Below, piece after piece: positions 41,931 to 44,069 of a stretch of 64,000 nt of DNA. The translations under genes were made by a program, and so were the position numbers. Below the pieces are notes generated by a model that had not been told where the DNA came from, made no database searches, and saw only the letters and a list, made by a program, of their open reading frames with translations. Source of the stretch: Ideonella sp. MAG2. Its GTDB lineage: Bacteria > Pseudomonadota > Gammaproteobacteria > Burkholderiales > Burkholderiaceae_C. The stretch is taken from the NCBI GenBank assembly GCA_004359425.1, contig PTEU01000002.1:462771-526770 (forward strand), given 5' to 3'. Each line of letters starts with the position of its first letter. Position 1 is the stretch's first letter.

Positions 41931-44069
41931 TCACCGAACCAAGTCGTCCAAAAACTCCGAGCATGGCTCCACGCTGGTCACCAGCAGTCGATCACGGGCT
42001 CGGGTGCAGGCCACGTACAGCAGGTGTCGCTCGGTGTTGTACACCTCGTCAAGGTCGGACTCGTCCATCACGCTTTCAATGCGTGACTGCAAGGGCAGCA
42101 CCTGGTCATCGCAGGCCATCACCGCCACCGCTCTGAACTCCAAGCCTTTGGCCAAATGCATGGTGCACAGTGAGGCCTCGCCGGGCGCGGTCTCCACGTA
42201 GTCGTCCAGCACTCGGTGGGGCAGGCCCGCCGCCTGCAGCGCGACGCGGGCGCGCTGCAACTGAGGGTCGTCGCGCACCACCACAGCCAGCTCATGCGGG
42301 GCAAAGCCCTGCTGCCGCAAGCCCACCAGCCAGTTGGCCACCGCCTGGATCTCTTCGGCCTCCGTGGCGTAGGCGGCCATCACCGGCGCTGGGCCATTGA
42401 ACACCGACACGGTGCCTTTGCGAGACTCGGTGTTGCCGTCCATGTCCGCCACCTCCGGCCCCAGCAGCCGGTCGGCCTGCTGGCGAATTTGGTGTGAGGT
42501 GCGGTAGTTGATGTGCAGCGTGCGCGACCGCCCGCGCAAGTCCACCCCCAGCGACTTCCACGAAAAAGGCTGCTGAAAAATTCGCTGCCCCAAGTCGCCC
42601 GCAAAGAACAGGCTATTGGGCCGCACTCTGCCTTCGCCGTTAGGCGCCACACCCGCCATGGCCGCGAGCATGCGCAATTGGCCCACACTCAAGTCTTGCG
42701 CCTCATCCACCACCACAAAGTCAAAGGGAGGGTTCTTCAATTGCACCAGCTTGGCCGCCAAGGTGGTGAACAGCCGAGCAGGCGTGGTCAAACCCTGCGC
42801 ATCCAGCCGCGCTTGCACCGCCTCAAACACCGCCCAGAGCGCTTGCCGTTGGGGCTCAGACAGCCGAGTCTTCCGACCCAAGCGCTTCACTTCGCGATAG
42901 TCCTCCCAGCTCTGCAACTGCCAGGCATCCACCACGTCCGCCCATTCACCCAGCACAAAGTTCGGGGTGAAACGCGCCAACAAAGCGCCGGGTTGCGCGG
43001 CGCGCTGTTCGGCCAAGGCAGCCTCCACGGCAGCCCGCTCGTCTTGCCGCGTGGCCAAACGTGGCTTGGGTTGGTTGCGGTCGCGCAGCCGGTCCATCAG
43101 GCGCAGGCCCATACTTTGCACGTCCACCACTTCCAGCCGCTCGGCCAGCCTAGGTTGGTGGCTGATCAGGCAGTTCATCTTGTTCCGCAAGGCATTGGCC
43201 AACGGCTCAGAAAAGGTCGTGAGCCACACCCGCGCCTCAGGGTGCAAGCGGGCCAGCGTCACCGCGCGGTGCAAGGCAACGATGGTCTTGCCTGTGCCTG
43301 CTGATCCAGACACCCGCGCCGGGCCACTGAAGTCCCGCTGCACCCATTGCTGCTGCGCAGGGTGCAAGAAGATGGACCACTTTTCCCAAGGGGCCGCCAA
43401 GGCCTGCTCCAACTCTTCGGCGCCACTCATCAAGCGGAAGCGGCGCTGAGCGTCTGGGTGGCTGAACGGGTCGGCGGGCTTGGCCGCGCCCAGGTTGGCA
43501 ACAGGCAATGGCTTGCCACCTGTGGCCATTTCCAACAAGGCCTCAGCCGCTTCGGCAGGCAAATGCTCAGCTAAAGCCAGCAGGCTGTCTTCGTCTGCCT
43601 GCTTCACATCGGCCAGCCAGTCGGCCGGCACACCAACGGCCAAGAGCGTCTCGTCCGCCAGCGTGGCAAACAGCAGGCGCTTGGGCGGCCGCGTGGTGCG
43701 CTCTTGCGCAACATCGCCAGCCACCCACTGCTCCACCACCCGCTCGCGAATCTCCACCCACTGCGCAGCACCTGTGCTGGGGTGCGTTTCCAAGCGGCGC
43801 CGCTCTGCCCATTGATAGGCCTTGTCGTGGTGGTCCACGTAGCACAACAAAAAGCTGCTCTCCGTTTTGTGGACGATCAAGCGCAGGTCACTGCCCACCC
43901 GCACCGACCAGAAGTGCTTGTCCTTGGACTTGTCGATGCGGTGGAAGCGATGACCAGGGTTAGCAGGGTTGACCTGCAGGTCAAACGCCGTGGTCTTGAC
44001 CAGCTTCTGCTCCTCAGCGGTCAGGCGTGAGAGGCTGTCGGTGAAGGTGTCGGAGATGCGGAATTGCAC
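41931..44069 (-). CDS. SF1 UvrD/Rep-like helicase with an N-terminal RelE/ParE-like domain
   Basis: 712 aa, GTG start 3 nt after the upstream stop. The N-terminal ~95 aa (FHRIDKSKDKHFWSVRVGSDLRLIVHKTESSFLLCYVDHHDKAYQWA) look RelE/ParE-like. Helicase motifs are GSAGTGKT, VVVDEAQD, FFAGDLGQRIF, NYRTSHQI, TMHLAKGLEF and YVACTRARDRL. Confidence 0.85.
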   Translation of the reverse strand: MQFRISDTFTDSLSRLTAEEQKLVKTTAFDLQVNPANPGHRFHRIDKSKDKHFWSVRVGSDLRLIVHKTESSFLLCYVDHHDKAYQWAERRRLETHPSTGAAQWVEIRERVVEQWVAGDVAQERTTRPPKRLLFATLADETLLAVGVPADWLADVKQADEDSLLALAEHLPAEAAEALLEMATGGKPLPVANLGAAKPADPFSHPDAQRRFRLMSGAEELEQALAAPWEKWSIFLHPAQQQWVQRDFSGPARVSGSAGTGKTIVALHRAVTLARLHPEARVWLTTFSEPLANALRNKMNCLISHQPRLAERLEVVDVQSMGLRLMDRLRDRNQPKPRLATRQDERAAVEAALAEQRAAQPGALLARFTPNFVLGEWADVVDAWQLQSWEDYREVKRLGRKTRLSEPQRQALWAVFEAVQARLDAQGLTTPARLFTTLAAKLVQLKNPPFDFVVVDEAQDLSVGQLRMLAAMAGVAPNGEGRVRPNSLFFAGDLGQRIFQQPFSWKSLGVDLRGRSRTLHINYRTSHQIRQQADRLLGPEVADMDGNTESRKGTVSVFNGPAPVMAAYATEAEEIQAVANWLVGLRQQGFAPHELAVVVRDDPQLQRARVALQAAGLPHRVLDDYVETAPGEASLCTMHLAKGLEFRAVAVMACDDQVLPLQSRIESVMDESDLDEVYNTERHLLYVACTRARDRLLVTSVEPCSEFLDDLVR

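Follow-up and report, generated by a model that had tools for sequence, protein, structure and literature searches.

A RelE-like domain fused to an ArmD-family UvrD-type helicase encoded at the end of a Type III restriction-modification operon in Ideonella sp. MAG2

The toxins of the RelE family are the textbook example of mRNA interferases that depend on the ribosome. A recent survey of multidomain RelE/ParE toxins makes no mention of helicase fusions (Gerdes, 2025; PMC11980606). Fusion of a RelE-like domain to a helicase is already known from ArmD, from annotation in IMG (automatic name [quoted passage not shown]) and from the Tiamat preprint. ArmD, a component of the ARMADA type II defence system (E. 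coli NCTC 12900, ATCC 8739 and EDL933), is made up of an N-terminal RelE-like domain and a GajB-like UvrD helicase (10.1101/2025.09.15.676423; 10.1101/2025.09.22.677730). Deletion of armD or the Walker A substitution K266A abolishes ARMADA II defence and D454N causes partial loss; the system acts non-abortively and requires the ATPase of ArmD (ARMADA preprints, as above), and in the second ARMADA study the armD deletion mutant was not as strongly impaired as the remaining arm mutants. In E. coli ATCC 8739, armD is located at NC_010468 4239557-4241671, with the genes for ArmC (2113 amino acids), ArmB (1642 amino acids) and ArmA (952 amino acids) upstream. Here we describe an ArmD-like gene in a stretch of 64,000 nucleotides from Ideonella sp. 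MAG2 (contig PTEU01000002.1, positions 462,771 to 526,770; the window, in whose coordinates all positions are given), where it is the last gene of an operon of the Type III restriction-modification (R-M) type. Homologous loci are labelled L and genomes G, each with a number.

The gene occupies positions 41931..44069 of the minus strand (712 amino acids, GTG start, stop codon included) and is present in a single copy in the genome; the GTG start is right, since homologues share the same M-x-F-R-I-[AS]-D-T-F beginning. The protein consists of a RelE-like head, a flexible linker, a small helical domain and an intact superfamily 1A (SF1A) UvrD-like helicase. In BLASTP it aligns with E. coli ATCC 8739 ArmD (WP_000218176.1) at 33% identity, residues 5-699 against 10-693 (E 4e-89), and on this full-length homology it is assigned to the ArmD family, more than 7,900 proteins matching its first 230 residues. 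The two proteins have the same three-part architecture, collinear over the full length, with the same helical domain in the middle, the same invariant S, R, R, H and Y in the RelE-like domain, and the same Walker A lysine and motif II aspartate that were mutated in ArmD; both are also encoded by the last gene of a methyltransferase-containing defence operon. The differences are that the clade of the window protein is separate, on a long branch with 100% support, that its putative general base is His43 whereas ArmD has Glu, and that it partners Type III Res and Mod proteins (NF046055 and PDLC03632), with a variable cargo slot before the helicase, whereas the partners of ArmD are ArmA (BrxHII-like), ArmB (a PglX-like methyltransferase) and ArmC (YprA-like). 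We regard it as highly probable that a RelE fold, membership in the ArmD family and an accessory role in defence with linkage to R-M hold together for this protein.

A sequence-only reading of the window had proposed a RelE/ParE-like domain fused to the N-terminus of a UvrD-type helicase, and the structural comparisons bear this out. AlphaFold2 (AF2), run on residues 1-115 with an alignment of 47 sequences, gave a model of the N-terminal domain (N-domain) with a mean predicted local distance difference test score (pLDDT) of 86.6 and a predicted template modelling score (pTM) of 0.79, in which a strand (2-5), two helices (7-14 and 18-33), four strands (42-44, 53-57, 62-68, and 72-80) and a helix (81-89) are followed by an additional hairpin (91-95/102-106). 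When this model was compared with the PDB by Foldseek, the top 19 and the remaining listed matches were all RelE, YoeB, YafQ, HigB or ParE toxins or the RelE domain of Cami1; the best match was YoeB (2a6r_C, E 3.1e-5, prob 1.00), TMt values were 0.68-0.76 (0.76 for archaeal RelE, 3bpq_B), and M. tuberculosis RelE2, YafQ, HP0892/HP0894, ParE and HigB were among the further matches. [quoted passage not shown] A Pfam scan of the first 100 residues alone returned HigB-like_toxin (PF05015) at E 2.3e-4 with a sub-threshold score of 22 bits against a gathering cut-off of 27, and some homologues more than 75% identical carry precomputed PF05015 matches. [quoted passage not shown] The RelE/YoeB/YafQ/HigB-fold domain, as delimited by AF2, Foldseek, VIA and the PF05015 match, comprises residues 1-106 (43752..44069, minus strand), with a core (residues 1-89) and a family-specific beta-hairpin (91-106) that contains the invariant G100 and Q103. 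The peptide quoted in the sequence-only reading is the translation of residues 1-88, and the span it gave, 43770-44069, corresponds to residues 1-100; its start was correct and its end slightly short, the model placing the end at about residue 106 (43752). A search for free-standing relatives of 60-193 amino acids was dominated by fragments of the fused gene. ESM Atlas clusters of 113-119 amino acids, one of them auto-named RelE family toxin, are candidate free-standing relatives.

Downstream of the N-domain, residues 107-138 (43656..43751, minus strand, as are all parts of the gene) form a linker that is probably flexible, as judged from poor conservation (mean identity 38% within the clade) and low pLDDT (below 50 for residues 112-125 of the full-length model, which has an overall pLDDT of 84.5 and pTM of 0.75). 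The full-length model and conservation (74.5% mean identity in the clade) delimit a small four-helix domain at residues 139-185 (43515..43655; helices 139-144, 149-156, 160-167, and 172-182), which is also found in E. coli ArmD. The helicase core, an SF1A core of the UvrD/PcrA/Rep type, extends over residues ~205-712 (41934..43457); Pfam places UvrD-helicase at residues 236-499 and UvrD_C at 633-700, and the top Foldseek matches of this part are UvrD, PcrA and Rep (E 1e-20). All of the motifs GSAGTGKT, DEAQD, GD..Q, NYRT, T.H..KGLEF and ACTRA are found, with little or no variation among 40 homologues, with Walker A (GSAGTGKT) at residues 255-262 (43284..43307), where K261 corresponds to ArmD K266, and motif II (DEAQD) at residues 455-459 (42693..42707), where D455 corresponds to ArmD D454. 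This part of the protein is a genuine SF1A helicase of the UvrD type. Its NCBIfam scores against the models of true UvrD, Rep and PcrA fall far short of the cut-offs, and the best PADLOC matches of the core are C3a187 (NERD-UvrD, 2e-23) and GajB (4e-18), the GajB models covering parts only.

The residues of the N-domain were compared with those of the ribonuclease-type toxins (relE, yoeB, yafQ, and higB of E. coli K-12 from the annotated genome, and 30 YoeB genes from genomes of the same class). By hhalign, the family profile aligned with the 31-sequence YoeB alignment (E 2e-4, probability 46%; query residues 15-72 with YoeB 18-73), pairing H43 with Glu46, W54-S55 with W56-S57, R57 with Arg59 and R63 with Arg65 of YoeB; YoeB alone aligned, and nothing usable was obtained with the single E. 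coli RelE, YafQ and HigB sequences. Ungapped extension of this alignment puts H81 on YoeB His83, in agreement with the ranges aligned by VIA (model 1-82 with YoeB 1-84; model 1-86 with YafQ 4-92), the second of which would put H81 on YafQ His87 and Y85 on Phe91. [quoted passage not shown] The codons of the putative RNase active site (H43, S55, R57, R63, H81, and Y85), as located by hhalign, the VIA ranges and conservation, lie within 43815..43943 (minus strand).

Conservation was assessed in 161 N-domains, 81 from the clade of the window protein and 80 from the sister (ArmD) clade. S55, R57, R63, H81, Y85, W87, G100 and Q103 are invariant in 161/161, an invariance that is partly circular for H81, Y85 and W87, which lie within the peptide patterns used to fetch the loci; sets that HMMER collected with no such pattern show the same three without variation. 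All 81 sequences of the R-M-linked clade have His at position 43 and all 80 of the ArmD clade have Glu, which mirrors catalytic alternatives, since His and Glu are known general bases of HigB/YafQ and of YoeB, respectively. The RelE catalytic positions whose conservation had been left to be checked by the sequence-only reading are kept (R57, R63, H81, and Y85, with His or Glu at position 43), H81 being matched by inference. The N-domain is also the best conserved part of the protein within the window's clade (mean identity 79.9%, compared with 63.0% for the helicase), which fits a working active site or a highly specific ligand site and neither a decaying relic nor a ParE-type gyrase poison. 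Judged from these residues, the mRNase branch (YoeB/YafQ/HigB/RelE) fits the N-domain better than the ParE type, and among the functions that had been suggested for it, a ribosome- or RNA-directed effector is the best fit to the invariant YoeB/HigB-type positions, a gyrase-directed effector and an inactive adaptor being less likely. That the N-domain is an actual RNase we consider a possibility falling a little short of an even chance, and any specific RNA substrate must be proposed more tentatively still.

The same residues bear on two other readings of the domain. ParE toxins are among the VIA matches (Z 8.1-9.2), there is a weak Pfam ParE_like match on the N-domain (E 0.08), and the helicase core resembles UvrD, PcrA and Rep, so the domain might be a ParE-like, gyrase- or DNA-directed one carried by a housekeeping repair helicase (a UvrD paralogue). 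We consider this very improbable: the RNase-type toxins score higher (Z 10-12), the RNase catalytic positions are kept, unlike in ParE, the distribution is patchy, driven by horizontal gene transfer and confined to defence operons, and the NCBIfam scores for UvrD, Rep and PcrA fall far below cut-off; the gyrase reading was rejected on residue conservation. The main alternative, more plausible though still unlikely, is that the RelE-fold domain is a non-nuclease sensor or adaptor, which binds RNA, the ribosome, a nucleic-acid feature or a partner protein, and gates or targets the helicase as the real effector. ARMADA II is non-abortive and depends on the ArmD ATPase, the lack of an accompanying antitoxin would be more easily tolerated if the domain were non-toxic, and the invariant hairpin (G100 and Q103) together with W87 could form a binding surface; some members of the fold, those of the ParE type, do act via protein binding (PMC11980606). 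However, the residues that are invariant are those aligned with the general base, transition-state arginines and general acid of YoeB, the alternation of His and Glu at position 43 parallels known catalytic alternatives, and the same residues are kept in spite of different partners (Type III R-M or ArmC), which argues for a common small substrate over partner-specific docking.

The division into two clades was examined in a maximum-likelihood tree of 62 proteins, where the R-M-linked sequences form one branch with 100% support in the Shimodaira-Hasegawa-like approximate likelihood ratio test (SH-aLRT) and a long stem, and E. coli ArmD nests in the ArmC-linked group; the R-M label in this tree was assigned by clade, and among the 24 sampled loci one (L043) is without a detectable Mod. 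The sister clade, which was sampled in eight genomes and 80 metagenome loci, is ~35% identical in the N-domain and also has proteins of ~710 amino acids. In 57 of the 62 loci with at least 2 kb upstream, its gene lies directly behind that of a ~2,100-amino-acid YprA/DruE-like helicase, which matches E. coli ArmC in 60/80 loci; ArmB is visible where the flank is long enough. The sister clade is ArmD proper. Druantia was considered for it from the DruE-like label that PADLOC gives to the giant upstream helicase, and was rejected, this helicase being ArmC of ARMADA. In tblastn searches with E. coli ArmA, ArmB and ArmC, the 81 loci of the R-M-linked clade gave 1, 0 and 1 matches, respectively, with none in the window; the window operon is not ARMADA type II, since ArmA, ArmB and ArmC are absent and Type III Res and Mod stand upstream instead. 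Three loci with other arrangements were also observed. In L094 (3061-10113), a helicase of the ArmD clade is encoded directly behind a 1621-amino-acid protein like TmtA of Tiamat (PADLOC TmtA, E 6e-184) with an HNH-like C-terminal region, an arrangement that matches the "Type I-K" neighbourhood of the Tiamat preprint. In L100 (438-4518), a divergent long-branch member placed next to the R-M-linked clade in the tree adjoins a gene for a 618-amino-acid protein with TrkA_N and RyR domains, and not R-M or ArmC genes. In L177 (6261 onward), a metagenome contig, a frame led by the RelE-like domain is open for 2099 codons, for which a fusion or an assembly artefact is possible.

Linkage of the window's clade to Type III R-M genes was counted in loci that have a full-length helicase gene and at least 9 kb of upstream sequence. 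A Mod gene (~940 amino acids) lies upstream on the same strand in 44 of 45 such loci and a Res gene (~1020 amino acids) in 39 of 45; the Mod is of PADLOC family MTase_III PDLC03632 and the Res is a BPTD_3080 family restriction endonuclease (NCBIfam NF046055). The mod gene ends 6-124 nucleotides before the helicase start in 12 loci, and in the others 0.65-7.9 kb of varying genes are found between the two. These cargo genes are defence-like and include those for a STAND/AAA_16 ATPase, an ImmA-type M78 peptidase with DUF4411, AAA_15/AAA_21 ABC ATPases, an AAA+ ATPase with an S8 subtilase, HerA, an ABC-3C CTD6 protein and SMC-like ATPases, and in 7-8 loci a three-gene set without Pfam match (c12/c10/c26 or c34); examples of the slot are L026 8355-10001, L045 8804-9991, L068 8361-9994, L054 8339-9994 and L036 6457-9994. 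Embedded defence genes have been described for Hma, BREX, DISARM and Type I R-M systems (10.1101/2024.01.29.577857), and the slot between mod and the helicase gene shows the same pattern. Across the compared loci no conserved small open reading frame (ORF) that could encode an antitoxin accompanies the gene, mod abutting it in 12 loci and the slot genes varying in others; with no cognate antitoxin gene, this is not a canonical type II toxin-antitoxin module. In the searchable literature, no paper combining Type III restriction-modification, UvrD and RelE was found, nor was the conserved pairing in which a distinct clade of ArmD-like proteins goes with Type III R-M operons of the BPTD_3080 type and their cargo slot. 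Two further features of these operons were seen: the res-mod junction is occupied at times, unrelated ORFs of 367-381 amino acids being present there in L025, L053 and L136, and one genome (G129:C17:87710-87922) has, ~4 kb upstream of the complete gene and within its operon, a partial second N-domain that is 66% identical to residues 8-78, contains an in-frame TAG and may be a recombination remnant in the cargo slot.

In a scan of one genome per species, close relatives of the N-domain were found in at least 587 species, at 73-92% identity and in at least 10 phyla (Pseudomonadota, Acidobacteriota, Nitrospirota, Planctomycetota, Verrucomicrobiota, Chloroflexota, Armatimonadota, Bdellovibrionota, Gemmatimonadota, and Desulfobacterota, and others); identity at this level across phyla points to frequent horizontal transfer under strong constraint. 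Within the class the distribution is patchy, the N-domain of either clade being present in 17 of 401 genomes (a tally in which the unpublished genome G296 is counted). The Mod family (at least ~60% identity) is present in ~19 of the same 401 genomes (including the unpublished genomes G039, G141, and G296), and the R-M-linked helicase in 8 of these 19. Six loci of the helicase-less kind were fetched and have Res and Mod genes followed by host biotin genes or unrelated ORFs: in L135, L136 (G001:C67), L137 (G224:C113), L139 and L140, Res-Mod relatives with a Mod 61-68% identical stand without the RelE-helicase gene, and in L136 and L137 biotin-synthesis-like host genes come directly after mod. 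Nearly every helicase of the clade has an R-M pair and about half of the R-M pairs are without the helicase, a pattern that marks an accessory working with, or dependent on, R-M.

The operon of the window itself appears partly decayed. Its Res gene (47518..50580, minus strand; BPTD_3080 family, 1020 amino acids) scores 1340.9 bits against NF046055 (cut-off 800; positions 1-969 of 970) and appears to encode an intact protein. The Mod gene (44714..46465, minus strand; PADLOC MTase_III PDLC03632, E 2e-241) encodes 583 rather than ~940 amino acids, with the Pfam N6_N4_Mtase match limited to the first half of the protein. BLASTP with the 946-residue Mod of L075 aligns residues 56-436 and 746-946 of the latter, so that ~309 residues (~437-745), including the region of S-adenosylmethionine (AdoMet) motif I, have been lost in frame, along with the N-terminal ~55 residues; judged from this, the window Mod is probably an inactive methyltransferase, in an operon that otherwise seems intact. 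With Mod lacking its AdoMet-binding region, the R-M part of the window looks decayed, whereas the helicase gene is intact with all motifs, and the helicase may be a surviving remnant or may act alone. Between res and mod lies an NYN-domain gene (46477..47409, minus strand; Pfam NYN, E 1.2e-11) with weak PADLOC matches to NYN and HEC-09. The slot between mod and the helicase gene holds an ORF of 214 amino acids (44073..44717, minus strand) with low GC content (~45%) and a GIY-YIG match at E 0.035 only; it forms a singleton cluster with no counterpart in 66 other loci, and a two-gene module of a GIY-YIG nuclease and the helicase was rejected, the constant partner being Res-Mod. On the other side, an ORF of 217 amino acids (41204-41857, plus strand) is convergent on the helicase gene; it has a lower GC content (~53%), no Pfam or PADLOC match, and no counterpart downstream of the helicase in the compared loci.

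Several other systems resemble parts of this arrangement. The free-standing mRNA interferases YoeB, YafQ, HigB and RelE (2a6q, 4q2u, 4px8, and 3bpq) share the core fold and size (Z 7.7-12, rmsd 2.1-2.8 Å) and the positions of the general base, arginines and general acid, whereas the window domain has no antitoxin gene, is fused to a 600-amino-acid helicase, carries an extra C-terminal hairpin and falls below the Pfam threshold. Cami1, a CARF-RelE ancillary effector of type III CRISPR (8phb/8phj), and HEC-07 (10.1101/2024.01.29.577857) likewise have a RelE-fold RNase effector within a larger, antitoxin-less defence protein, but the RelE domain is C-terminal and, in place of a helicase, regulation falls to a CARF sensor in Cami1 and to AdoMetDC-like and thioredoxin-like domains in HEC-07. 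CnuH of the Type II/III-A CoCoNuT systems (PMC11090510), compared by description only, is a superfamily 1 helicase with a RelE/colicin D-like "RTL" domain in a restriction-type system predicted to act on RNA; its helicase is UPF1-like, however, its RTL domain is internal after an SmpB-like OB fold, and the systems are of the McrBC type. NERD-UvrD (PADLOC C3a187; a Tiamat type I-G partner) and GajB are similar in that a UvrD motor, working alongside a defence protein that targets DNA, bears an N-terminal head of nuclease type. In the window, the head is a RelE domain of RNase fold instead of a PD-(D/E)xK NERD domain, and there is no GajA neighbour. Gabija was rejected as an identity for the system, as no GajA-like neighbour is present in the window, and Hma was rejected as no Hma matches were obtained in PADLOC. 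PrrC, with EcoprrI, and RloC are RNases embedded in Type I R-M loci and made up of an ABC ATPase and an anticodon nuclease; these, too, are RNA-cutting proteins tied genetically to an R-M operon, with a different fold and another R-M type.

The explanation that we favour, and hold to be probable, is that the protein is an ArmD-family accessory motor-nuclease of methylation-based DNA defence, encoded by an optional last gene of BPTD_3080-type Type III R-M operons, in which the order is res, mod, a slot that collects defence genes, and the helicase gene. We infer a functional coupling of the helicase to Res-Mod. In the proposed sequence of events, Res-Mod would recognize and cut unmethylated invading DNA; the helicase would be recruited to, or activated at, the resulting ends, nicks or single-stranded DNA and would translocate with the energy of ATP; and the tethered RelE-like domain would cut RNA there, either mRNA in ribosomes that translate invader transcripts or the RNA of R-loops or primers. 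The outcome would be a local block of invader expression or replication without cell killing, a reading that agrees with ARMADA, whose defence is non-abortive and needs the ATPase.

Alternatively, the protein could be a self-contained abortive or toxin module in a defence island, in which the helicase has the role of a trigger sensor or of an antitoxin in cis, and host translation is shut down globally by the RelE domain once this is activated, either independently of Res-Mod or as a guard, like PrrC with EcoprrI. Given the near-obligate, same-strand linkage to one Res-Mod family (44 of 45 loci), the tight coupling to mod in 12 loci and an ArmD homologue that works only with ArmA-C, and non-abortively, we hold this to be improbable, even though translation is arrested by toxins of the RelE family and by fused effectors of this kind such as Cami1 (itself among the structural matches), the operon slot gathers independent defence genes, and the gene is intact here despite the decayed Mod.

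A number of observations weigh against the motor-nuclease explanation and have to be set beside it. In the ARMADA papers the mutations were made in ATPase motifs only and not in the RelE-like domain of ArmD, and the appendage of 600 amino acids might hinder entry into the ribosomal A site. The fit of the N-domain to the RNases is qualified by the sub-threshold Pfam score and the partly circular invariance, by the placement of H81 and Y85, which comes from ungapped extension and alignment ranges rather than from a residue-level superposition, and by sequence and profile searches of PDB chains with the N-domain, which returned no RelE relative and gave chance matches to ADP-ribose pyrophosphatase and TTC5. 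As to the coupling, the Mod of the window is probably inactive, and about half of the Res-Mod family lacks the helicase, so that R-M function can do without it.

An extended form of the motor-nuclease explanation, which is speculative and in our view rather unlikely to hold in full, is that the R-M-linked helicase is a second-line, RNA-directed arm that would be licensed by the action of Res-Mod on foreign DNA or, as for PrrC with EcoprrI, by a phage block of that action, carrying a YoeB-like RNase along invader DNA against nascent or ribosome-bound mRNA, while its gene would be the fixed 3' anchor of a recombination slot that exchanges defence cassettes between phyla.

For the family as a whole, an antitoxin-less version of RelE fused to a DNA helicase is present in thousands of proteins, and the R-M-linked clade, found in genomes of at least 587 species, offers a simple, three-gene setting (res, mod, and helicase) for cooperation between an RNA-cutting fold and DNA restriction. 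Through "guilt by embedding," which to date has been used on Hma, BREX, DISARM and Type I R-M, the slot between mod and the helicase gene can readily supply candidate defence genes. For the window itself, what is gained is mostly a correct annotation and one more, partly decayed, example. If the extended explanation were true, a classical R-M operon would unite DNA- and RNA-directed immunity and carry a cargo site of its own.

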